Shown here piece by piece: positions 7,283 through 56,460 of a stretch of 64,000 nucleotides of DNA; the stretch's first letter is position 1, and each line of letters starts with the position of its first letter. The stretch is from Sphagnum compactum. Its lineage: Eukaryota. The notes under the pieces are model-generated. The model was not told the origin of the DNA. It made no database searches and worked only from the letters and a program-made list of their open reading frames with translations. The position numbers and the translations under genes were made by a program. The stretch is taken from assembly GCA_965153455.1 (NCBI GenBank), contig OZ234494.1, positions 9,424,001-9,488,000 on the forward strand, in the 5' to 3' direction.

Positions 7283-7313
<31 letters not shown>

Positions 7314-7357
7314 TTCATGAGAATTTGAGAACTGGTTTTGGAAGAAGAAGAAGAATC

Positions 7358-10300
7358 ATGGCGAGCTTGGGGAAGATTATCAGGGATGATAAGCACCCAG
7401 TATGGCTAGTAGATGCGATTGTTCTCTCGGCCGTGGTGTACAGCAGTGTTCCAGAGGAGGAGCTGAAGATCATAGAACGAGAGTACGGGCTTCCAGCGAC
7501 GGCCAGATACGAATTCGTGGCGGAGAAAGAGCTGAGGGAAAACGGATATGGAAACTGCAAGCAGACGTTGCTGGTGGTCAGGTCGCTTGTGGACTCTCAC
7601 TACATTGTCGCCTGTCGAGGTTCCTCCGACATCAGCGATGCGCTGGTGGATCTCAGATTCCTGCACCGGACTATGAGCCTCACCCCAGGTGCTGCTCACG
7701 CCGGTTTCTTGGATCGTGCCAAGACCATTCCCTTGGAGTATTTCAGACGTCTGTTGGTGCGGGGGGAGAATGTTGTGCTCGCTGGTCACTCTCTTGGAGG
7801 TGCTGTTGCATCCCTCCTTGCTCTCAGGTACTAAGTGTATTTGAGAAGAGACTTCTTCTTCAAGCTCTGAAAAAACCCAAAATCTTCAATGGAAAAAAAG
7901 CTTGTTTGTTAGGTCACGAAAGAAATGCTCCTTCTGTTCAGCTCTCTGTCTTGTCTGTCTGTGTCTGACTCTGACTCTGTCTTGCGGGGGCTGGCATTCT
8001 TGTATTGTAAAATTGTTGCACATATTGTTGAGGGTTTTGGTGTGTGTGTGTGTGGCTCTCTCTCTCTCTCTCTCTCTCGGGTGCTGACATTCTTGTATTC
8101 TAAAATTTTGTACTTGTTGTTGAGGGTTTTGGTGAAAGCTTTGATGGTGCAGATTGCTGGAAGCAACAGGGCGATGGTGTCATGCTCAATTGCAGTGCCA
8201 TACTTTTGGTTGTCCATTCTTTGCAGATTCTCGACTAGCCAGGTATGTATGTATCTATCTATCATGAATCCCCCCTGCTTCTTCTTCTTCTTCTTCTTCT
8301 TCAGCATCAAGGTGGTCATTAGGATTTGGTGTCTTCTGCACTTGGAAAGCACTTCTGGGTGGGTGTTCTGCATATGTTAAAGCCCCAGGGTGAGGGCATT
8401 CCCAAGATAAGGGGCCTAGATGAGGCAGTAGTTGAGTCGAGTCCTGCATTTTGGGCAGGGGACATGGGGGCATTCCCCAAATGATGGGCCTATTGTAGGA
8501 TGAGGTGGTAGCCAAGTCTGGTTTGGGAATGTACATCTTGAGGAATGTACACCTTGAGATCTACATTCTCGTTTGGGAATGGCGCTAGACATATGTACCT
8601 AGACATTTGTAGATCATGAGGCGTAAGAGGGCAACAGCTTGTAAGCCCAATCCTTAAAATTGGGAGGGATCTTACACCTATTAAGTAGGCATAATTTCCC
8701 TTCCACTCTTAAGGAGTAGCTGTAAGATTCCTCCACATTTCTAAGAGGGATATTCTCAGATGTAGGGTGCCCTCCAAATATACTAGAAAACTTTTCAGAG
8801 TGCTTGACAAAGTGTGAAGTCGAGGTCTGTAGAGAGAATTTGTTATTTGGGCTGATTTGAGTGTTTTTTTGTCTGTTGATCATCATGTCAACCAGGTACA
8901 TCAACAAACATTACCAACAACATTTTGTACATGTGGTGTCAAAGAACGACATAGTTCCAAAGGTGATGCCATTGGCATACACAATCTTCCACATGTGGGC
9001 AGGGTTGAATGTGGGGCCTCTTCATGAAGTGCTACACCTTGTTCGTGTTGGAACGTTTGGGCTTCAGTTCTTTAAACTGAAGCCCAAGGAGTTGCCGTTG
9101 GTTATGGCTGGCACACAGGCTCTGACTTGGGTTCCAACAGTTCTGAGGTTCTTGCTTCACAGGGCACTTGCTTTGGTGCTTTCGTACCAATCTGGTCGTG
9201 GCTACTCGTTTGCAGGTCACATGGTTTTGCTTGACACACAATCCAACTTCCTGGAATACACAGATCGGGAGCAATGGAAGATGGGCAAACATTTGAAGTT
9301 CCATCTAAATTGTGGCTCTTTGGACATTATGAAAGAACATTCGCTCATGAACTACATTGATCATGTGTTTGCAATCGAGTCTAGTAAGCAGGCATCTAGC
9401 AGTCAGTTGAACCAGGATGTTGGATTAGCTGCAGCAGCCGTGACAGCAACAACAACCAAGGTAACTGCTGCTGCTGCCACCACCATTGATGATGAAGCTG
9501 CTTTTAGCACATTGAAGGTGGAAGTGTGCTCAGCTACACTGAGTATGGACTGGCCCGCTGACAACAATGGCAACACTCATCATCCTCAACAGGCAATACT
9601 CTTTATTACCCCTCCTCTCTTGTTATGGCAAAATGCTTTTTACTCACAAGTCCACCCAAATCCCTTGATTTGGGCTTCTACAACTGTTTATCAAATCCAA
9701 CATAGAGTGTTAATTGTATCCCCCAGCTCGACCCGTATGCATGAAAAATTGGACAGTATAAGCTGAGAGGCCTCAATTTTGAATGCCCACATGGGCCAGT
9801 CAGAAGTAGTCATTTTAAATGCTGTTCTTGGGGCAATCATTTGGCCAGCCAACCAGAAGCAGATGGTTTCTTTTCACTGCGCCTTCTGGAGACCAGTGTA
9901 TCCTGTATAAATGTACAAGTTCCAACCCCATATTTTACACTATTTGAAGGCTACACTTCATTCAAAGTACAGTCTACAGGCCATTTTACTGCTGACTATG
10001 AACCTGCTCTAATCAGACTAGAATGGATTGTGGCTCTGGTGTGATTACAGATCGCAAGATGCTTACTTGGAAGTCTTTTGTTTTTTGTGTTTTTTGTGGT
10101 GGCAACAGCAGAGCAAGGGAAAGAGGAGGAGGGCATGGTGTCTGAAACACAAGTGGTGACAATGGAGCAAGGGGAGGAGGAGGAGGAGGAGGGCATGGTG
10201 GGTGAAACACAAATGGTGAAGAAGGAGTTAGTGCCAGGAAAGATTCTGCGCAGCCGAGTGGCATGTCTCATCTTTGTTCGTCGCATGCAAGAAGCCAGCC

Positions 10301-35700: not shown

Positions 35701-36383
35701 CAGTTGCAAACCATCCCACATCTTGCACCACTACTCGGAGCTAATGAAGCCAGTGGAGATAGTATGGTAGCTGGTCACTACCATACTTGTTCCTGTTGAA
35801 GGTTACTGAACAGGTGTGTGACTGTCACTGTTGTTCAAACTGCTCCTTAGTTTTTAGGGTTGAATCTGTTTGCAGAAATGTTGTTGGATGTAAATCTCTA
35901 TATCCCTATCATTAGGTCATTTCTCGGTTTTATTCATGTTGACTTTAATTATCTCTCGATATCCTCCATTTTCATGATGTATTGTTCCATTGAAATCCTC
36001 CAAGGTTGGAGCACATTGGTTGAAGAGTTGGATTGTGTACTGGATGTTGGTGTTTCCCCTAAGCCTGATTCAGATTTGTGCTTTGCATTAAGGGCCGACC
36101 TATTGCAACCCACTGCCTCTCCAAAAAATTTCACTATTTCAGTCATATCTTTGATGTTGGCTGGTATCTGACATGTTTGCATGCACTTTATGTTTTCTTG
36201 AATCTGTCTGGTTCTTATGGAATTCATGTGGTTGTGGTTTGGCATCCAGCCAGTGGAGATTGTGGATACCCACATACCAACTTCATTGAGGAGGAATAAG
36301 ACACTGGGCCTTGAAAGTGGAGGAAATTGGAGGACTGGTGCCAAGCTAACTGAAAGCTTTGTTGTGATCATTGGTGTTATAAC
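32740..36383 (+). other. Probable long intron-containing 5' UTR of the RING E3 gene
   Basis: GC-rich, CTT/GAA-microsatellite-rich block at 32740-33670 ending at a candidate donor ctag|GTATTA (33670), followed by T-rich intron-like sequence; candidate acceptors at about 34760 and 36249. No transcript support. Confidence 0.5.
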
Positions 36384-39300
36384 ATGGATGAGGGCATGGA
36401 CTCAAGAAGGGGTCCTCCACATGTTGGAGGGAGCCACTGGCTTTCAACTGACATAATCTACCAGCCTGGTAGCAGCAGTGGCAACAGCAGCAGGGTGATT
36501 AGGATGGATGAAGCAGGTGAATCTTCATCTGGTGGACGGGGTGTGTATCGCCAAGATTGTGGAAAAGGTCCAGAATCTAGTAGACCCCCGATTCACAAGC
36601 CAGCAGCACAGGTCTCTTCAAAGCTTGTGGCTACACGATCCTCTGGTGCTCGAAGAATGCAGAGAGCCCAACAGGCATCCTTGCAAGGACCCTGGAATGT
36701 ACTGCAGAGCTACCCAGGGGGGTTGAATGACCCAGCCCTGGAGTGTACAGGCATGGATGGTGAAGCCAACCTTGCTATGGGTCTTAACACACAACAACTT
36801 GTATCAGATGAGGCTGCACGACCTTCAGGTCAGGAACAAGCAGACAATGAGTATAATCTATTTTGGGCAAGGGGAGGTCACAGCACTCCTGATGGTCTTG
36901 CTGGGAAAGGACCAGTTCCGGGAAGTAGTGCCACCGAGTATTTCCCAAGCAGGAGGGGACATGTAACAGAGCACATTGGTGCTTGGAATGGAATGTCTGG
37001 AGTACCACCATTGGGAAGCAGGCAAGCTCAAGCAGGTGCAGATGTTGCCTATCCTAGAGTCAGTATTGGTAGCATTGGTATTGAAGAGAGACAGGGGGGT
37101 GATGTTGGTGGAAGTATGAGTTTTAATTCGCTGAACTCTTTCTACGGAGATCACCAAGATTTTCTGAATGAAGGCAGAAGTGGTTTTAATGAGAAGAGAG
37201 CAGATGATTCCAGTGGAAGTGTGACTTACAACTCTCTGTATGTTGACCACCCAAACTACATGGATGAAGCCAACTTACAGGCTAGCAGCAGTAATTATGC
37301 CCACTCGGCTCAAGTGGAGGCATTTTGGGCTGCTGCTAGTAGGCATCATGCCTCGTTGGACACTCATGCAGCCTGCAGGAGCAATGTATTCCCTATTTCA
37401 ACAGAAAGACATTCACTGAGGAGCAATCTACCAGGGAAAACTTCAGAAAATGGAGCGAGTAGTTCTGGTAATGCAAGTAGTACCTCCAGAAGTTCTGCTT
37501 GCAAGAGAAAGAGTTGCACCCCAGTGGCGGCAGGTAGTTCATCTTCTCAAAGTGATTCTCTTCACAGAGGTCGGTTCCGGGAAAGCTACAGTAGAGGGGC
37601 AGTTGAAGGTAGCAGCATGAGTAGGTGCAATGCAGGCATTGCAGGTTGCACATCTGCTTCTGATGTTGGGGCCTCCACGTCCTCTTCAGCAGAGGCATCC
37701 TGCAGAGGGCTAGGTTTTGCACCCTTGGTTGGGACTGGCACTGAGGATCCCCGAATTTCACATTTTGGCAGTGAAACAGAGTTGTTGCTGGAAGCTCGTA
37801 GGGATAGCCGTGCTGGGAAGAATGCTGTCAGCAGTAGCAGTACATCAGGAAATCCTCATGGATTCACTCAAGGAGGACCAGTTGGAGTGGTTTTAATGGA
37901 GGCAGGAGCAGTACAGCCTCCTGCCCCTTTTGCTCGGACTGTGCGTAGAGCTGTACCAGGACTGAGCCCTGAAACCTGGGGCTCTTCCAGAACACCACTC
38001 ACTGACTCATCAATGGATGCTGATAACTCTATCTCTACCACCAACTTGCTTGTTGATCAGATGCTCAGTTCTAGTCCTCCTTTGTGCCATGGTAGTCCTT
38101 CTGTCATTGGTGGCAGAGGTGGACCCCCAGCATCTCTACGACGCAGTGAGAGCATGCTTGGTTCGAGTGGTTTAGGAGAGCCAACAACTCTGAGGTACAT
38201 GGGTAACAACAACAATCGAAATTTGTCAACCCGTGCAGCAAGTGCAAGTCAGCTCAGAGCAGCAGTTGCAGCAGAAAGGAGATTACGCAATCAGGCCATC
38301 AATTACCACAGCTTACAGTCCATGTCTCTCACTGCTCCCTTGCCCTCCAACCCTGTGGTTCCAATGATGCAAACTACTGCTAATTCAGCAGCCCCATCCT
38401 CACCATGCCCTTTAAGGCCACCACCACACCCTCCAATACCACGGAGCAGACTACAGGGGAGCACCACACATATGTCAATACTTTCCCCATCGTCATCAGG
38501 AGCTGCACCTTCTCGTCTTGCTCATGCTCCTCCTTTCAACCCTTCTGTTCTTGCTCCTTCCATAGACTCTCTTCCATCAGCAGCAACTCTTTTGCAACGG
38601 TCAATGTTGCCAAGGCCGTCTGCATCCGGTGTGCGTGACAGAGGTCTTTCATCAGTGGCTGAAAGTCTACTTGGAATGCCTTTCCGGGGATTACACATGT
38701 CTGCCGGTGAGGGAGCACATCAGCCCCGACTTGCGGCTGAGGGGCTGGCTGAGGTTGGTCATCTCAATTGTGCCTTCCTCTGATCATTGTTATAAGTTTT
38801 CGAATTACAGTATTGCTCAAGATGGTTGTGTATTGGCAAATATGAAACTTGGATGTAAAGTTAATGTAAGCAATTTCCGTGATGTTGAAGCTACCAGTAG
38901 GCCTGCAGCCTGTATGACTGAACCATTCTTGATGACTCATGGACAATATTTCTGCTGTCTTAACTGGAACTGAGGCTTTCTTTGCTTGAAAATGGTGTGA
39001 AGCAGATTCTGTTGGCGTTGGAGCGTGTGGAGAGAGATGAGGATCTGACATATGAGGTACATTCACCTTTCCGTTGCATAGTGTTGTACTCCATGTTGTG
39101 TGGGGGTAGTGATTCTGAGTTTCAGCCTTCACTAGCCAAGCATGCTGCTCGACTAAACCATGTTCACCATGTTACTGTAGAGTACATCGGGATGTCTTTT
39201 TTGGTCACAAAAGTGGTCCATTCTTGGAGTGCACTTTGGATGCTGACAACATGCTGCAAAGCTTGTTCATCTTTAATCTGAAAGGAGAGAAATAGTTTTC

Positions 39301-40470: not shown

Positions 40471-43400
40471 CATTTATGGTTAGAGGATTAAGTCTGTTCC
40501 ATCATTTTTTGCTTCTAACTCATTGTGGAGGAGGTCTTCTGTTCTCTGACAGAGGGCACACACCTGCTCTATTTGTACCAGCTTGTGTTCAAGCAGGTTG
40601 TTGTCTGTGGTTCCAGGACACTAGTTGGATGTCCTCTGTTCAGCTTTGCATCCTCCTTGTAGTTCCCAGTTCAATAGTTCTTGTGAGTATTGTGCCTCCG
40701 TCAGGCAAATTCAGAGATATTGATGTATTGATTGAACTGTAGGGCGCCGAGCGATTGGAATGTGGTTTCTGTGTCTTTGTCATCCAAAAAAATGACTGGC
40801 AAGGAAAATAGTTTGTCTTGAATAGCTGCCTTGGTAGGAAGAAGAAAAGACAAGTGTTTTGTTGAGGGAGTCCTTTGCTACTCTGGGCTGCATGTGTCAC
40901 CATCATATGACTAATGTGGATGAAGCACATAGTTAGACATGTGTGTCCATATCTTTGCATGTGGGTGTGATGTCAGGGTTTTTCTCAGTTCTGGTAAGTT
41001 TCCATGTTGCACTGTTCATTTGTGTTCAATTTGACAGCAAATTCCTCACCATTAATTTCTAGGGTCTCGGTTGTAGATAGGCCCAAATACCTTTACTAGT
41101 CATTCCCAAACTCTCCATCAAGTGACCAGGTTAGGAAACCAGAGCAATGCTCATCCAAGTCTTTGCTTTGGCTGAATGTCCAATTGTGACAAATTGGAAA
41201 TTCTAACAGGACTTCTCCACTGAATATGGTGGGATCAATGTTTTGTGTGCCCTCGGGTGCTGTGTCAATAACAAATGTAGGATTGCCATGAAAGAAGTTT
41301 AAAGTCCATTAAAGAACTTTGTTTTTCAAAGTTTTCTTTAATGGAAAGTTTCCATCATGTGTTTTTTGTTTCATTATGGTTCACTACAGCAGAGAAAGCT
41401 TAATTTCTGCAAGAGGATGGTTCATAGGTCAGTAATGAGCTTCTTGTAGTAAACAAAAACTGTGTTCTTTCTCAATGAGTTTGTGAGGAATAGTTTCATT
41501 GAGAGTGCGAGGCAAACCTTTTTAGGTGGTGTGTTATGTCAGGATATATGAAGGCCAAGAGAGTGCAGACAAATTTGTGGGAGAAATTGTGTCGTTTTCT
41601 GGAATCAGAAAGAAACATACATGTTTTGTGTACACAATGTTCACATTCATATGATCTAACCATATGTGTTTAGGATCTATTGTTTGTGTTTTTACAGTGT
41701 TCAAGAACTTGAACATTGTATATATGCAATAAAATTTCGCACTTCAATGAAATGAAATGATCAAACTTCGTGAACTAAAAATGATATGGAATTAGGTGCA
41801 TTCTTTCTTTGATACTCTCCTTCAGAGTAATAATTAACTTCTTCAGAGAAATGAGAATTTTCATGGCAAAGGAGCTTTGCATATCTACAATTAGCTATAG
41901 CTCTCTTCCTCGAATGCTTTCCATGCATTGCAAGTGTGTCAAAACTCTAAATAGTGGAAGAGACTTAATTGTAGTGTCAAAATTTTAATGTATAGGGGAA
42001 GGAGCTCCTGTTAGGACATTATGCACTCACAGCATTATGCTCCTGTCAGGGCACTACGCCCTTAGAACTTGATTGGAACTCAATTGGAATCATTCGGAAT
42101 AGCCTCTTCCAAACCCAGATGAAAAATATTGGGCTCTTCTGAGAGCATGTCGGTCGTTTGCATTGACCACATGAAAATTATGGCTGTCGCCATTTTCAAT
42201 CTGGGCTAGTAGACTTGCCTAATAGCATGGGTATGTATTTCAACAGATGTTCCTATTAATGTGAACCTTCCAAACTTTGTTCCGAAACAAAGAGACTATT
42301 TACCGAAAACAAGCAACTCATCGAGTAATGAGTTTGCTCTTTATGGCAGGTAAAACTTCAAACTTCTCTCCTGGATGCAAGCACTTCTATGGGAGTTCCT
42401 TGGGACATCTATGCCCATCGTGCAAGCCAAATTTGTGCCCAAATCCTACTCCTACTAGAGTTATCCATAAAGTAACCCTGTCTTCACCTTATTTGTGGGC
42501 CTACTTTCACCCCCTATCCGCTATTTCAGCAAAGTAAGGACATTTTATTAAATCTCAGTATGAAATGTTGCAACTCGGGACGAAGTGCTGAAATATCAGC
42601 ATTTAATGCACAAGGTTTGAGATTAATTATAGTAGGTGTAAAGGTAAGAGTAGTGAAATTATATGTAGCAGCAGTGGAATCAGGAAAAAGAGAAGACATC
42701 AGGAAAAAGAGAAGACAGGATAAAACTCAGTTTACCAGCAAGATTGATGGTTTTCTGAGTTTCACCCCCTTTTAAATGCTAATGTAGTTTTTTGCAGGTT
42801 TTTTTATAATCTCACCCTGTGTATGACCAAACTCAGGGTTCTGGTGCTGTGTTTGTCTTACTTTACGAATAACTCTAATGTGTTCCCTATGAAGGAAAGG
42901 ACTTGAATCTAATTGCCAAATGTGAATAATATAGGGCCAAGCTAGAAGTCAGCCTCCAATTCTGACACAATTTTGTATAGTGTAACTTACAAGGACAGGA
43001 ACCATCTATCAAAAGTACAAGGCAAATGAGAGCACGAGTAAACACAACTCCAAAATGAAACAAAAGCAAACAATCAACGAAAAATAAAGAAAAAATTTAT
43101 GCAAATAAAATTCATGGTTATGAAATGACAATCAATATAACAAAGAAGACTTAAGACAAGAAAATTGTCATTTGTCACAAATCGACTAATAATGAAGGTG
43201 CACTAGCTATAATGTGTGGAAGAAATGAGGAACCCTTGTGACAAAAAACTTGGGCACGCAATAATCAAAACAAGGAACACATATATTAAATAGTAAAGCC
43301 ATTCTCAGAATTACCCATTGGCTTTGAGTTGATGGTCACCTAAATTCTTGTTATTACCAACAATGAAAGGCTTGAGGTCTCTAAGGGGTCAGATCTCTAC

Positions 43401-43925
43401 GATCTCTCTTTCTTGATCTCACTAGCCTTCCTTCTCTTCTCAATTACTTTAAACCACATAAACCCAAAACAACATTAAACTTCCAGAAGTACCCGTGTGC
43501 CAAATTACACTTTGTAACATAGGCCCTTGAGTCCAAATAAATTGCGTAAACTAGTACTCACGATACCACCCCTCAAATTGACAACACATAACAAAACAAA
43601 AATAACACATTTCAACTCCCAATTGACTGCTTCACAAGTTTTACAAAGAACCACAGCCCGCTTGCATGATTCATCTTGTAAACTTTGATGGAATATGACT
43701 GTTCTTCGGAGATCCCAAAAATTGAAGTTCTCTCTCATGATATGCAGATCAATAACATTCACACACAAATCAACCCAACTGAAAACAGAAAAAAAACGTT
43801 CTTCCTTAAACCCTAAGACTTCTTCTTGTTCATCCCGACCAAGTGCAGCAGCCCGCTAACAATTGATATGGACTCACAAATGCGTCATCATCATCCTCTT
43901 GATCAGGTAGAGCTTGATCAAAATC

Positions 43926-46157
43926 TCACTCCAATTTCTGCCCCAAGTCTGCAATATAAATGACTGGCATTAAATCAGGTATATGGAGCAAGGTGCCCAC
44001 AATTCCAAAATTGGTAAATGAATCCACATCAGGCTCAAAATACAGAGTGAGAGAATACATAATTTTATGCAAGTATTAGAAGACATCGAGTGAAAAGATC
44101 TTAACTGTTCCCGGTTGGAGCAATATCAACTTGGACTTCTGCTAGGGCATGAGACTTCTCAAAGTGCAGGTTCGCATCCCTACATTTGCAAAAAAATCGT
44201 GGTTCTGTGAGTCAGAAAGAGCTAGCATTTTACAACAATAACTCTTGCACAAAATGGAGAAAAAGAAGAAAGGAAAGATGTCACCAAATTATACTTTCTC
44301 CTTTGCAATGATCCACAAAATCATGGATGCAATCATAATAAGAGCAATAAGCAAACATGTCAAATTATGTCTCAAAGGTTGACAGGTGATGCTCAAATTG
44401 ACTGAGAATGTACCCAACAAGCTCCCTCGCAAGATACAGGAAAGGCTTCTCAAAGTTGTAGTTGCTCTCAGCCGAAATCTCGTAGTACTGCGCCTTTCTC
44501 TTTGTCTGCAATGCGATTTGTTTGACCTTCATTCCAATTTTAACAGATACAGTGACCTGTTTGGACTTGACCTCCCTGTTCTTCATATCCATGTTGTTGA
44601 TTCCACACACTACTACTGGGATGTCCCCACATACCCTACACATGTAAGCACAAGGACATGGCCAAAAAAAGGGTGCTTAGATCACCATACCCAAGAGGAG
44701 GAGGAGGAGGAGGAGGAGGAGGAGGAGGAGGAGGAGGAAGAGGAGGATTTTAATCAACAATTTTGTACATACTTACAACAAGAGTTTTGGAGCGAGAACT
44801 ACTAACTTGAGGAGGTCACGATAACATCTGGAAAAATACTTGAAGGCCGATTTTACAGTCAGATCAAGCATGATGATGGCACAATGTGCACCAATTCTGG
44901 ATCAAGAATAAACCAATGAAAAAGAGTTAGGAAGCAAGTTGGATCCAGATCATGAATCCAGCAAGCATCAGCATTACATAAGCATGGAAATGAGGAGAAA
45001 CCGATCAGCAAAGAAAAGAGAAGATCATAGCACAAGAGAGAATTATGGAAGTGGTTTGAATGACAGCTAATGATTATATGCACATGTGCAGGGACTGTCA
45101 AACAGCATTCAAAACATGCATTCACATTGAGTACCTATATAAATCTGTTGGGAGGAAAAAAAACAAAACTTACAAGTATCCATCCCGAAGACCTCCAGGA
45201 TTCTCTTGGTCTGGGTTTGTGTCCCAGCAGTCAAACTGGATGTGGCCTGAGTTGTTAAAGAAGTGAAGAGTATGAACTTCCACACCAGGAGTGCCTGCAA
45301 TGTAACAATGTGAAAAACAATATATGAGAAACCTCTGCAACAAAACCAATTGCTCCTAATTATCATCCACCTACAAGATGTTGTTCTTACCCTCCAAAAC
45401 ATTGGAGGGATGGTAATGGAGCAATGCTTCAACACAAACCATGCAAATCCACATTTTTTTGAAGCAAAAAAGGTACTATTCAGCAAAGCCAAAGGTACTA
45501 GATTGTTTTGGCAATATACAAAGGTGAGCTCATGGATTGCCCATAGATATTTCTCTACAAATAGAAATGAAACATAAATTGGGTTTTTGATACTTACCAT
45601 GACATAAATTCTTATTGAATTCAGCACTCGAACAGGCACTCAAATGACTTTTCAGAAACCCACCTGCAACAAGATCAAGAGAAACATCCATTCTTAAAAC
45701 TATATCCAATACCTCCAGGGAGCCTTGAAGGTTTGCAAACATCCGATATATCACATTTTTATTGAAGGTGCATATACACGAACAGCTTCGAAGACAGAAT
45801 TTATGAAAATATTCACGAAGCTTCAAAGACAGAAATTATGTAACCTGAGACGATCTTAGTGGCCCAACAAACTGAAGCCACATGTACCTGTTGTGCCTGG
45901 ATCACCGACGATGATGAGCTTGAAGAGTGGAGAGCAAAGATATTCAGTTGTGAAAGCCTTCAAACAAACAAAACCAACACGATCATGCAGCATCGCAGGA
46001 GTTAGACGAAAGATCAGTGTCAAAATGTGTATTCCAGCCAAATCCAAACATTTGTATTCTTCTGATGGAAAATGGGAAGAGACTACTTTCACAGCCCCCG
46101 CAATTTCAAGAAAGAAGAAGTAAGTAGAAGCATGAAACATCGGATCATTACCATCAT
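43926..46157 (-). CDS. RAN: Divergent Ran-like GTPase, copy 1 (pseudo-GTPase or young pseudogene)
   Basis: Exons (-): 46157-46152 (ATGATG|GT), 45957-45888, 45663-45598, 45294-45174, 44896-44807, 44635-44414, 44179-44106, 43948-43926, all joining in frame. Ran hallmarks: [17 protein letters not shown]...[49 protein letters not shown] at 43928-43926 precedes the acidic tail LPDQEDDDDAF. Confidence 0.85.
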
Positions 46158-46228
46158 AGTATACGACGTTTCTGAGCGCCGGCGCTGTGGAGGCCTCCAC
46201 AAGATTCTCCTGCCTGCAATAAGAAGAA

Positions 46229-47422
46229 GAACAACAATAAGATCAAAAACAACAAGGTTTCGAATTCTCGGTTTCTGATCTGTTCAGGATTTGAGTGCGA
46301 GCTTGGAATCATGAAAACAAAATATAAGAATACTCACCACCACCACCAAAAACTACACTCGTAAGAATAACTACAAGAGTGTGAACAAAAGCTTACATCG
46401 ACAACAGTGAGTATTCTTAAGATAATAAGTGAGAACAACAATAAGATCAAAAACAACAAGGTTTCGAATTCTCGGTTTCTGATCTGTTCAGGATTTGAGT
46501 GCGAGCTTGGAATCATGAAAACAAAATATAAGAATACTCACCACCACCACCAAAAACTACACTCGTAAGAATAACTACAAGAGTGTGAACAAAAGCTTAC
46601 ATCGATAACAGTGTATTCTTAAGATAATAAGTGAGAACAACAATAAGATCAAAAACAACAAGGTTTCGAATTCTCGGTTTCTGATCTGTTCAGGATTTGA
46701 GTGCGAGCTTGGAATCATGAAAACAAAATATAAGAATACTCACCACCACCACCAAAAACTACACTCGTAAGAATAACTACAAGAGTGTGAACAAAAGCTT
46801 ACATCGACATCAGTGAGTATTCTTAAGATAATAAGTGAGAACAACAATAAGATCAAAAACAACAAGGTTTCGAATTCTCGGTTTCTGATCTGTTCAGGAT
46901 TTGAGTGCGAGCTTGGAATCATGAAAACAAAATATAAGAATACTCACCACCACCACCAAAAACTACACTCGTAAGAATAACTACAAGAGTGTGAACAAAA
47001 GCTTACATCGACATCAGTGAGTATTCTTAAGATAATAAGTGAGAACAACAATAAGATCAAAAACAACAAGGTTTCGAATTCTCGGTTTCTGATCTGTTCA
47101 GGATTTGAGTGCGAGCTTGGAATCATGAAAACAAAATATAAGAATACTCACCACCACCACCAAAAACTACACTCGTAAGAATAACTACAAGAGTGTGAAC
47201 AAAAGCTTACATCGACAACAGTGAGTATTCTTAAGATAATAAGTGAGAACAACAATAAGATCAAAAACAACAAGGTTTCGAATTCTCGGTTTCTGATCTG
47301 TTCAGGATTTGAGTGCGAGCTTGGAATCATGAAAACAAAATATAAGTTTCACTCACCACCACCACCAAAAACTACACTCGTAAGAATAACTACAAGAGTG
47401 TGAACAAAAGCTTACTTCGACA
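46229..47422. repeat. 204-bp tandem array, ~5.9 near-identical copies
   Basis: Units start at 46229, 46433, 46635, 46839, 47043 and 47247 (one unit is 202 bp); part of the unit is single-copy upstream of Ran-like copy 2 (about 54985-55105). Confidence 0.97.
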
Positions 47423-47785
47423 CTCCTTACAAGAGTGTGATGAAGCTAAATTGTGTTTGAGACCCCATTTAGGGGTGTTCCAAGGATCATTTCAGGTCCC
47501 ATTTTTTTGTTTCAGGTCCCCTTTCCGAAACCAGTGGACGCATTAGTCCCTGTTCACTAAACTACTGTATTCACCATTTTTTCACTAACATCCCTGTTCA
47601 TTATAACCAATGAAATCACTCTACATACAGTGACACGTTTTGAAACAATGTCAGAATTTAATAATCTATTATATTTATTCTTATATCTTAAAATTTTCAA
47701 AATCAAAAATTCAATTGCCAAATCAAAAACTTAAAATTATACAAATTATTCAACACATTAGTGCCGAAGCTGCCCAAGTATTACA

Positions 47786-47967
47786 TTATTACAATTCGAG
47801 CGTGAACAAGAAAGAGAATAAATCTTTGGGTTCTTTGTTCTTTCCTCCTTTCCAAACAGGCTCTTTGGCATAACTATTATTACAATTCGAGCGTGAACAA
47901 GAAAGAGAATAAATCTTTGGGTTCTTTGTTCTTTCCTCCTTTCCAAACAGGCTCTTTGGCATAACTA
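47786..47967. repeat. 91-bp perfect tandem duplication
   Basis: ttattacaattcgagcgtgaacaag...ggcataacta at 47786 and 47877. Confidence 0.95.
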
Positions 47968-48007
47968 CGGCAGTCCTAATTAAGCAGAGCTGGTTCTTCT
48001 TCTCCGG

Positions 48008-52990: not shown

Positions 52991-54920
52991 TTAAAACCTT
53001 TCCTTATTTGAAAATAAGATTTCATTCCCATTTGGTAGGCAAGAATGACTAGTATGCTTGACCATTGTCAATTCCTTGGATAGCTTATCCCAAGTAAAAG
53101 CATTTTTGACTACCATTGTCAGTTTGTTCAATGATGGGTGGGTAGTGTAGAACTCACCAAAAAGTGGGCAACCACACTGGAAGAGTGTGTCCACAATCCC
53201 ACTAATCATGTGCAAACCAAGGTTGGGCATTTGGGCAGGTTTTAGGTTAGGTTTTGGGATGTCCCCACATACCCTACACATGTAAGCACAGGGACATGGC
53301 CAAAAAAAGCATGCTTAGATCAGCATACCCAAGAGGAGGAGGAGGAGGAGGAGGAGGAGGATTTTAATCAACAATTTTCTACATACTTACAACAAGAGTT
53401 TGGAGCCAGAACTACTAACTTGAGGTCACAATAACATCTGGAAAAATACTTGAAGGCCGATTTTACAGTCAGATCAAGCATGATGATGGCACAATGCGCA
53501 CCAATTCTGGATCAAGATAAAACCAATGAAAAACAGTTAGAAAGTAAGTTGGATCCAGATCATGAATCCAGCAAGCATCAGCATTACATAAGCACGAAAA
53601 TGAGGAGAAATCGATCAGCAAAGAAAAGAGAAAACCATAGCACAAGACAGGATTGCGGAAGTGGTTTGAATGACAGCTAATGAATATATGCACATGTGCA
53701 GGGGCTTTCAAACATCATTCAAAACATGTATCACATTGAGCACCTATATAAAACTGTGGGGGGGAAAAACAAACAAAACTTACAAGTATCCATCCCGAAG
53801 ACCTCTGGGATTCTCTTGGCCAGAGTTTGTGTGCCAGCAGTCAAACTGGATGCGGCCTGAGTTGGTAGAGAAGTGAAGAGTATGAACTTCCACGGCAGTA
53901 GTGGCTGCAATATAATAATGTGGAGGAACCTCTGCAACAAAACCATTGCTCCTAATTACCATCTACCTACAAGATGTTCCATCAAAGCAAAAGGGAGAGA
54001 AGGTAATGGAGCAATGCTTCAACACAAACCATGCAAATCCACATTCTTTTGAAGCAAAAATGGTACTATTCAGCAAAGCCATAATTTCTAGATTGTTTTG
54101 GCAATATACAAAGGTGAGCTCATACATTGCTCATAGATATTTCTGTACAAATAGAAATGAAACGTTTTGATACTTACCATGACATAAATTCTTATTGAAT
54201 TCAGCACTCGAACAGGCACTCAAATGACTTTTCAGAAACCCACCTGCAACAAGATCAAGAGAAACATCCATTCTTAAAACTATATCCAATACCTCCAGGG
54301 AGCCTTGAAGGTTTACAGATTTTCCTCTACATCTGATAAAGTATGTACATTTTCCGCTACATTTTTATTGAAGCTGTATATACACGAACAGCTTCAAAGA
54401 CAGAACTTATTCACGGAAATTATTCACGAACTGCTTCAAAGACAGAAATTATGTAATCTGAGAAGATCTTAGTGGTAGAGAAAACGGGCGCCCAACAAAC
54501 GTTAAGCCACATGTACCTGTTGTGCCTGGATCACCGACGATGATGAGCTTGAAGGCTGGTGGAGGGCAATGATCTACAGTTGTGAAAGCCTTCAAAGAAA
54601 CAAAACCAACAAGATTATGCAGCATCGCAGGAGTTAGAGGAAAGATCAGTGTCAAAATGTGTATTCGCGGATTTAATAAGACCCAAATTCAAACATTTGT
54701 ATTCTTCTGATGGAAAATTGTAAAAGCTCAAGTACCATACACCTGGCCATCGCGTCAGCAGCAGCAGCAACAGAGCAGCACAGGCAACAGCAGCAAACAA
54801 CAATAGCACTAGCAGCCACAGCAGGGATCTTCCGCCTACTTCTACCTGAAAGAATACGGAAGAGACTATTCCCAGAATAAATGTCAATTGCAACAAGAGA
54901 AGTAGAAGTTTAAGTACCAT
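52991..54920 (-). pseudogene. RAN: Ran-like copy 2: 5'-partial duplicate fused to unrelated sequence
   Basis: Exons (-): ATG at 54920-54918, 54589-54517, 54243-54178, 53904-53784, 53506-53420, then from 53273. Homology to copy 1 stops after VCGDIP (about 53255); the frame stays open to TAA at 52991. Confidence 0.8.
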
Positions 54921-56460
54921 AGTTCCGACGTTCCTCACGTCCGGCGCGGTGACCTCCACGAGATTCTCCTGCCTGCAATAAGAACAACAATAACAACAAC
55001 AAGAATAAGAACAAAAACAACAAGGTTTCGAATTCGATGTTTTTGATCTGTTCAGGATTTGATCGCGAAGTTGGAAGCATAAAAACAAAATAAAAACACT
55101 CACCAGCTGCAACACTCACGACGGCAGGAGCATACAACAACAACAACAGGAGATACAGCTACAGGAGCCCCGCTTTCACCGTCAAATACTCATTCAAACA
55201 ACGCGCAATACAAGCAAATTGCTCCGTAGACAAGCAATGCGGAAGGAGCATTCGTTAGGAGCATTCGTTAGGGAGCATTTGGAGGAAAATTTAAAAATAT
55301 TTTTATTCTCATTTTCTAAATTTAAAGATTTCCCTATGGACTTTTCCTTCTTTTCCTTGCAGCCATTGTACATTCATTCCAAAGCTGTCCAATTAGGATT
55401 TGAGCCCCCACCCCCCCCCCCCCCCCCCCCAAAAGAAGAAGAAGGTTTGGAATTACCTACCCAGGTTTCGAGTTTTGTCAAGCATTGAACAACATACTGT
55501 CGCCGAACTTTGGTTCTTTGTTCTTCCCTCCTTTCCAAACAAGCTCTTTGGCATAACTAAGGATCTCCTAAGCAGAGGTGGCTGTTCTCAACCACACTGA
55601 ACCAACGCCCACCAGTACACCATCCATTGGAAACCCAGTATTATTTTAGTTATGGACAAACCTCAACTGAGTTAATATTTGGTCCAGTAACCAATTCTGT
55701 AAGAAATAGGTCTCATATATAGGTAAATAGGTAAGAAAAATAGGTAACTACTATGTAAATAGATAAACGCTGTTTTTACTACCTACCTACTGAATTAACA
55801 ACCATACTTAGCTAAGGAACTGGAACACAACAGAAAACTGTTTTTCGACCACTTATCATCCATCGTCCAAGGTGACCTGGTAGTTCAGAGTGCTTTTTCT
55901 CTTTCAGTCTTTCGCCAAGAGGTTTGGGGGCGGGGCATAGTGTTGCAATGACATCTTTGTAAGATCATAAAGTGATAGTTTCTCTTTAGAAGAAGTAACC
56001 AAGAAGATATTTGATAGAACATCAGCGCTCTCTTTTGGTACCTCCCATTAACATTCCACTCTAAACCTTTTTTTGTAACTCCCTTTACTGTATTCCATGG
56101 GTGTTTTCATAAGGGTTACACCCTAAACCTTCAGTCACTCTGGGTTATTCACCTTGATTGCAGCCTCAGGTCTCTTCCCTCAAACTTTGTGAGGTTCCCT
56201 CCCCTTAGTTTTATAGTGTTAGAGCTTGGAAAATAGGGGGTGGCTACAGTTTTATTTTTCACCTCCACATTTATGGCATGGAGTGGGGATGTTGTTGCAA
56301 CAGATTTCTTTTCTCTGTTTCTGATTTTTTAATTTTTTTTGTGAATATCATAAAGCTATAGGTTGGTTTTTTTCTTCAATAGAACAAACTCTAGTTAGAA
56401 GCAGCCACTAGCAAGATGCTTTTGGACCACAATGCCAGTTTTTATTCTACACAATAATTT
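53255..56460. repeat. Direct segmental duplication of about 44617-50100 (offset ~8.6 kb over the gene body, shrinking upstream)
   Basis: Co-linear blocks: 44617-46340 vs 53255-55105; 47920-48250 vs 55510-55865; 48700-48910 vs 55980-56187; 49940-50100 vs 56300-56455. Confidence 0.9.

Follow-up and report, generated by a model that had tools for sequence, protein, structure and literature searches.

Ran is among the most constrained of eukaryotic proteins. The gene described here, copy 1, is a Ran-derived locus on the minus strand, at 46157..43926, of a 64,000-nucleotide stretch of Sphagnum compactum contig OZ234494.1 (positions 9,424,001 to 9,488,000); this whole stretch was analysed and is called the window below. 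Among the systems described so far are the Ran-like duplicates of Drosophila. For these, omega (dN/dS, the ratio of non-synonymous to synonymous substitution rates) is given as 0.47-0.52, compared with 0.0001-0.015 in the parent gene, with turnover of copies and pseudogenisation in some lineages; the duplicates are intronless, testis-enriched retrocopies, and omega is significantly below 1 in all except Ran-like(1) (PMC8645118). Arabidopsis RAN4 is reported as a Ran without the acidic and effector domains (PMC2814108). Class-I pseudoGTPases have also been described: the pseudoGTPase domains of p190RhoGAP are called evolutionarily conserved (PMC5593906) and AAGAB is given a demonstrated role (PMC12490416). 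A literature search over titles and abstracts returned no Ran-derived Sphagnum family and no Ran pseudoGTPase.

Copy 1 is read here as an unconstrained relic with an intact open reading frame (ORF), effectively an unprocessed pseudogene in a birth-and-death family derived from Ran, and a probability of about 0.5 is attached to this reading. As an earlier annotation made from the letters of the window (the sequence-only reading) had proposed, eight exons with canonical splice sites join in frame, and its start and end proved exact: 46157 is the first base of the ATG and 43926 the last of the TGA. The coding sequence is 672 nt long and encodes a Ran homologue of 223 residues; Ran-like blocks appear in three frames of the reverse complement. 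All seven introns run from GT to AG (194, 224, 303, 277, 171, 234 and 157 nt). The parts of the gene are as follows, a slash marking an exon junction:

46157-46152, minus strand: exon 1, ATGATG followed by a GT donor; the TM/AFTT junction is also found in the Sphagnum protein models P0004, P0007 and P0008
45957-45888, minus strand: exon 2, N-terminus, strand 1 and degenerate P-loop (GDPGTT/G)
45663-45598, minus strand: exon 3, remaining part of G1 (GGF) and the switch-I region with 4+1 additional residues
45294-45174, minus strand: exon 4, degenerate G3 (45223-45206) and GGLRDGY
44896-44807, minus strand: exon 5, strand 4 and helix 3
44635-44414, minus strand: exon 6, GINNMD (degenerate G4, 44604-44587), SAE (degenerate G5, 44475-44467) and a retained 14-residue stretch (44466-44425)
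44570-44532, minus strand: 39-nt in-frame insertion in exon 6, present in this sub-type only and absent from the related loci L002-L006
44179-44106, minus strand: exon 7, with a 1-nt deletion after 44118
43948-43926, minus strand: exon 8, ending ...QKLE followed by TGA
43925-43878, minus strand: what is left of the acidic C-terminal tail of the ancestor, DFDQALPDQEDDDDAF, in frame past the TGA and now 3' untranslated region (UTR)

The tail remnant is still legible as ...LPDQEDDDDAF, and the TGA, which is common to all seven DNA copies reaching that site, sits 16 codons before its end. The deletion in exon 7 is private to copy 1 when set against the six other family copies that cover the site (6/6); contigs from two other organisms (sequencing runs X9 and X13) all have the missing base, and the deletion alters the final ~12 residues of the copy 1 protein. 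Judged by its repeated residues, the insertion in exon 6 reads as a tandem duplication of a VK.KQ.. segment.

The GTP-binding motifs were compared with canonical forms read from P0011 and P0022 (Physcomitrium Ran1A). G1 is GDPGTTGGF in copy 1 and GDGGTGKTTF in canonical Ran, so that it is one residue shorter and without the Lys and Thr of GxxxxGK[ST]. G3 is DTNPDQ for DTAGQ, with one additional residue and the Gly lost (other sub-types of the family have DTNSGQ), G4 is GINNMD for GNKVD, with an additional Ile and Lys replaced by Asn, and G5 is SAE for SAK. Strand 1, GVEVH, GLRDGY and stretches of 15 and 14 residues are kept. The four degenerate motifs, the GGLRDGY and the 14-residue stretch had all been picked out by the sequence-only reading and were found as described. 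A P-loop without its Lys and Thr should bind nucleotide poorly; from this anatomy we infer that binding has been lost and that copy 1 could not cycle between GTP and GDP.

In database and fold searches the spliced copy 1 protein was represented by two relatives, P0003 (S. tenellum) and P0007 (S. fallax), and by P0001, the contiguous translation of exon 6. Alignment of P0003 to yeast Gsp1 showed that several of the motif changes are indels and not substitutions: the P-loop is shorter by one residue, switch I longer by four and by one, G3 and G4 each longer by one, and ALAPPEV shorter by two. All 45 PDB sequences matching P0003 at E <= 1e-10 were Ran or Gsp1 (best 2e-49), and its score against the Pfam Ras model was 68 bits (cut-off 21.6), compared with 162 bits for canonical Ran. 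On these comparisons the homology of copy 1 to Ran is judged to be far beyond chance. An alignment of 32 proteins served to build a fold model of P0003 (mean predicted local distance difference test score, pLDDT, 63.8; predicted template modelling score 0.61), with confidence below 50 at the switch-I insertion and across G4 and the 13-residue insertion. When the PDB was searched with this model in Foldseek, the best 50 matches were all Ran or Gsp1 (template modelling score 0.47-0.68; root-mean-square deviation 5-8 A). The predicted fold of P0003 is Ran-like; the model's modest confidence makes it too weak for arguments about surfaces.

Copy 1 belongs to a family of such copies. P0001 matched 16 proteins among 35 candidates, and the best eight were all Sphagnum gene models (64-88% identity). 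All eight share GINNMD and SAE, and G1, G4 and G5 are intact in none of them, so the motif losses arose in the founder of the family. Three of them are S. fallax genes with adjacent locus numbers on one chromosome (02G065200, 065700 and 065800). A search with the full-length S. fallax P0007 brought 442 of 607 candidate proteins past E 1e-20; in the best 120 of these 442, only Sphagnum proteins exceeded the ~60% identity of canonical Ran at a coverage of at least 80%, and all that did so came from genome annotations. A scan of metagenome contigs yielded six more family loci, L001 at 94% and L002-L006 at 68-70%, together with many canonical Ran genes, all at 58% or less. The exon blocks divide the protein at the positions seen in canonical moss Ran, so the founder was a DNA-level duplicate and not a retrocopy. 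A second member lies in the window itself, 8.6 kb from copy 1:

53254..54920, minus strand: copy 2, a truncated paralogue, with its ATG at 54920-54918, exons 2-5 at 54589-54517, 54243-54178, 53904-53784 and 53506-53420, and ~20 nt of exon 6

Past these ~20 nt the homology stops and the frame of copy 2 continues into unrelated sequence; the sequence beyond the breakpoint showed no repeat elsewhere in the window. Three sub-types, and mosaics of them, can be distinguished in the family, and the sub-types are shared between Sphagnum species. In copy 2, exon 4 is of type B and exon 5 of type A; in P0002 the N-terminal half is of type C and exon 6, which has the 13-residue insertion, of type A. These mosaics point to exchange between tandem copies, which would weaken tree-based tests of selection. 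L001 (intron K 0.054), the closest relative of copy 1, is dead: exon 3 lacks 1 nt, and exon 6 bears a TAG together with a 4-nt insertion and a 3-nt deletion. The S. troendelagicum model P0004 reads the other frame of exon 4, which implies either a frameshift there or an annotation error. A working GTP switch is ruled out by the anatomy of copy 1, and a single recent accident by its family context.

Intron 1 of copy 2 holds a Leu/Ala-rich frame at 54740-54840 (...LLLFAAVACAALLLLLLTRWP, then GT), whose counterpart is the N-terminus of P0003, a helix in the fold model (residues 2-21). Copy 1 has lost this segment, which may represent either a genuine alternative first exon or an artefact of annotation.

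For the analysis of substitutions, eight DNA copies were aligned with their introns, exon boundaries were transferred, and custom-written codon models were run with canonical Ran as control. Under model M0 omega was 1.12 for the eight sequences and 1.23 for the six intact ones; neither value differs from 1 (profile interval ~0.77-1.68). In a branch model over 131 securely aligned codons, omega was 0.013 in canonical Ran, 0.50 on the stem (P 0.12 against 1) and 0.999 within the family. Four of 28 pairwise values differed from 1 at p<0.05, three above and one below, and none of eight exon regions tested did so. Parsimony steps per site were 0.275 in exons and 0.227 in introns, and by codon position 0.307, 0.288 and 0.232, so that the third position was the slowest. 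Residues changed 0.550 times per codon in the 40 core-strand codons and 0.575 times in the remaining 174. As a control, 15 pairs of canonical moss Ran compared over exon 6 showed 0-26 synonymous and 0-1 non-synonymous codon differences. The X9 and X13 contigs were excluded from dN/dS, since several paralogues are piled together in them and 40 of 174 differences were visible; among these 40, the exonic ones were four synonymous and four non-synonymous (two of these being alternative changes at one codon). Site models M1a/M2a gave likelihood-ratio statistics of 7.6 and 17.1 in exons; pseudo-codons made from intron triplets of the same alignment behaved alike (4.5-12.9 and 6.9-25.1), and the signals were therefore dropped as evidence of selection.

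The protein sequence of the family evolves indistinguishably from neutral, and copy 1 would on this showing be without a present function. The sequence-only reading had suggested that something other than simple decay could be at work. This stands for the motif losses, which go back to the founder and are shared by the eight closest proteins; it fares less well against an omega of 1.0-1.2 and a dead closest relative. That reading had itself said that frameshifted orthologs with dN/dS near 1 would indicate a young unprocessed pseudogene, and this is largely the pattern found: L001 bears its 1-nt deletion, 4-nt insertion and TAG, and omega lies where stated. The word young does not fit, sub-types being common to Sphagnum species.

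Several signals run counter to pure decay, and so weigh against the reading of copy 1 as a relic. Its ORF and splice sites are intact, and it bears no lesion besides the TGA before the tail, which is family-wide, and the 1-nt deletion near the 3' end of exon 7; the frames of L002-L006 are open across the parts available. At the splice dinucleotides of exons 2-7 there were no changes at 24 sites, where 5.5 were expected from the intron rate (P 0.004), and among 164 exon changes one created a stop, where 5.6 were expected (P 0.025). Indel lengths were multiples of three in 6 of 9 exonic cases and 14 of 44 intronic ones (Fisher P 0.067), and the six indels that set the founder apart from canonical Ran all keep the frame (P about 1e-3 to 1e-4). 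From this last result it follows that selection on the founder as a coding gene most likely continued beyond the loss of the nucleotide pocket. Hydrophobic positions stayed hydrophobic in 26 of 41 variants, with 49% expected (P 0.047). Omega was 2.04 on internal branches (P 0.023) and 0.71 on terminal ones; since the sequences are mosaic and the intron control was scattered, the difference is kept only as a hint. The splice sites, the scarcity of stops and the founder indels indicate that selection for an open, spliced frame acted through much of the family's history. A depletion of frameshifts in exons was rejected as not robust: three were observed where 14.6 were expected from all intron indels (P 3e-4) and 10.2 from well-flanked ones (P 0.009), and with low-complexity contexts dropped the figures were two observed and 2.9 expected.

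The same signals are what would be expected if the family consisted of functional, nucleotide-independent Ran-fold proteins of the class-I pseudoGTPase type, evolving fast under selection that is in part diversifying and in part weakly purifying, with copies often dying, and copy 1 were live and weakly or conditionally expressed. The unchanged splice sites, the few stops, the in-frame bias of indels in founder and family, and the internal-branch omega all favour this account. So does exon 5, the fastest-changing exon at 0.444 steps per site (0.141-0.210 in the flanking introns, a two- to threefold difference), in which 12 of 13 residues at 44859-44821 are unlike NARLTYKNLPTWH, the form kept in other sub-types and in canonical Ran. 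Of the alignment columns invariant in the family, 66 equal canonical Ran and 28 differ from it, and the P0003 model drew only Ran/Gsp1 chains among its best 50 matches. Set against this, residue-level constraint appeared in no test (omega 1.0-1.2, core strands changing like the rest, third positions slowest), the site-model signals were equalled by introns, mosaic sequences can inflate tests of selection, the fold model is of modest confidence, and same-species polyadenylated (polyA) RNA yielded no copy 1 reads. We regard a functional protein as a tentative possibility that falls well short of even odds; such a protein would work through switchless binding of some Ran partner. An extended form of the account, in which this lineage-specific tandem family of putative nucleotide-free Ran-fold proteins is still selected, its sub-types diversify in a conflict over nuclear transport (in the spores or gametes of a haploid-dominant plant, or with a pathogen) and copy 1 is live, is considered unlikely; it would draw on the kept splice sites and frames, on a founder altered through in-frame indels alone and on the omega of about 2 for branches that separate sub-types.

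A search of sequencing runs gave 23, of which 20 contained part of the window; six RNA runs contained 7-12% of its sampled words. From X22, polyA RNA carrying the same species label, ~11.9 million reads (~12% of the run) were mapped at 90% likeness. Seventy-two mapped to copy 1, none at 99% or more, one at 95-99% and 71 at 90-95%. They were confined to the conserved ends of exons 6 and 7 and carried canonical SAK and ARK codons, and so came from canonical Ran mRNA; no copy 1 transcript was found in these ~11.9 million reads. A moss metatranscriptome, X16, gave results that tell against the relic. One contig, of depth 7.3, was joined exactly at intron 5 and included a 91-nt piece of exon 5 identical to copy 1. 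A second, of depth 14.4, was joined exactly at intron 3 and bore the 1-nt exon-3 deletion of an L001-like dead copy. Intron contigs in X16 had depths of 2-5 and canonical Ran ~410-470, contig depth being a poor measure of expression. In at least one sample, members of the family, one broken copy included, thus appear to yield spliced transcripts at a level that is a few per cent of that of Ran, and these low-depth spliced transcripts favour a functional protein. Absence of spliced transcripts, which the sequence-only reading had named as a mark of a pseudogene, describes the same-species reads and does not describe X16.

Free change of residues alongside kept splice sites and few stops would also be seen if the selected product were a spliced RNA, its frame held open only to escape nonsense-mediated decay, and acting through its likeness to canonical Ran mRNA as a small-RNA source or sponge. 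Parts of exons 6 and 7 resemble canonical Ran mRNA so closely, at 90-95%, that reads of the latter map to them, but transcript depth is low and Rfam gave no matches in 43000-48000 (E up to 1); this account is taken to be improbable. The same Rfam result led to rejection of a separate idea, that the gene hosts a small RNA in an intron.

The sequence-only reading had proposed a natural dominant negative, a nucleotide-free Ran that would trap RCC1, as RanT24N does, or karyopherins, possibly in a genetic conflict. The missing P-loop Lys and Thr, and hence poor nucleotide binding, would suit such a role, as would the raised omega and turnover reported for Drosophila Ran duplicates, which are linked to meiotic drive (PMC8645118). 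The most altered parts of the protein speak against it: these are the P-loop (one residue lost), the start of switch II (one gained), helix 3 (12 of 13 residues changed) and the helix-4 region (13 gained). They are also the parts of Ran that we take to face RCC1. The acidic tail is gone, and transcript levels reach a few per cent of canonical Ran at best (X16 depth 7-14 as against ~410-470), a weak basis for a stoichiometric trap. A trap of this kind is the least probable of the explanations weighed, and very improbable in its own right.

The course of events is read as follows. Ran was duplicated at the DNA level, introns included, to give a tandem family that was found in Sphagnum only among the proteins searched. 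The nucleotide pocket of the founder was destroyed as in-frame indels struck the P-loop, switch I, G3 and G4 and as Asn replaced the Lys of NKxD and Glu that of SAK; a TGA cut off its acidic tail. To judge from its six in-frame indels out of six, the founder was probably a selected coding gene while the pocket was being lost. In the family as it now stands, residues drift at the neutral rate, copies become truncated or frameshifted, and transcripts are rare.

Other features of the window are as follows:

46228..47422, no strand assigned: 204-bp tandem repeat, 5.9 copies with 98% matches, starting ~70 nt upstream of the copy 1 ATG
44690-44745 and 53380-53410: (CCT)n microsatellite in intron 5 of copies 1 and 2, 24 nt longer in copy 1; reads were cut at 44685-44752
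47785-47967: perfect 91-bp direct repeat in two copies, with a related 51-84-nt piece at 55509-55588, upstream of copy 2
36354-38783, plus strand: stop-free 809-residue frame, located where the window is richest in G+C (0.47-0.49), with no Pfam match at E 0.01
7289-7834, plus strand: piece of a class-3 lipase domain (Pfam Lipase_3, E 2e-9), probably an exon of a lipase gene

On the strand of the gene, the 204-bp unit runs from GTGAGT to TTGCAG, like a 5'-UTR intron with a short piece of exon, and one unit of this type is present at copy 2 (54998-55105). Such an array may have interfered with the promoter or 5' UTR of copy 1. In a Pfam search of 19 long stop-free frames of the window, only the lipase piece was recognised, and no transposon domains.

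As a relic, the family would be a clean natural record of a small GTPase falling apart, and of how long frames and splice sites outlive function. It also carries a warning for annotation, in that several Sphagnum genome annotations present its copies as if they were normal proteins, with the label 'GTP-binding nuclear protein' on one model. Were the family still under selection, it would be the first Ran-derived pseudoGTPase known to us, and a plant counterpart of the Drosophila Ran duplicates of meiotic drive.

Compared with known systems, the family is nearest in descent to canonical plant and moss Ran (Physcomitrium Ran1A, P0022, and loci L011, L013, L016, L022 and L025), which supplied its best sequence and fold matches, at ~60% identity, and shares its exon positions. 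It is unlike them in the degenerate G1, G3, G4 and G5, the indels in G1, G3 and G4, the TGA before the acidic tail, and an omega of ~1 in place of 0.013. With the Drosophila Ran-like genes it has in common an origin by duplication of Ran, an omega far above that of the parent, and turnover of copies; the Sphagnum copies differ in being tandem DNA duplicates with seven introns at parental positions, with omega of ~1 and with the G motifs lost. Arabidopsis RAN4 is likewise a plant Ran paralogue, tied to the Sphagnum family through shared descent from Ran only. Class-I pseudoGTPases resemble the family in their degenerate nucleotide-binding motifs and in a GTPase-like fold, which is predicted for the family, and differ in that no residue-level conservation was detected in the Sphagnum family. 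From families of unprocessed pseudogenes it departs in the open frames of copy 1 and most other copies, in 24 of 24 splice dinucleotide sites unchanged and in stops below expectation; it resembles them in its tandem DNA duplicates with introns, its lost parental motifs, its omega of ~1, and its truncated and frameshifted members.

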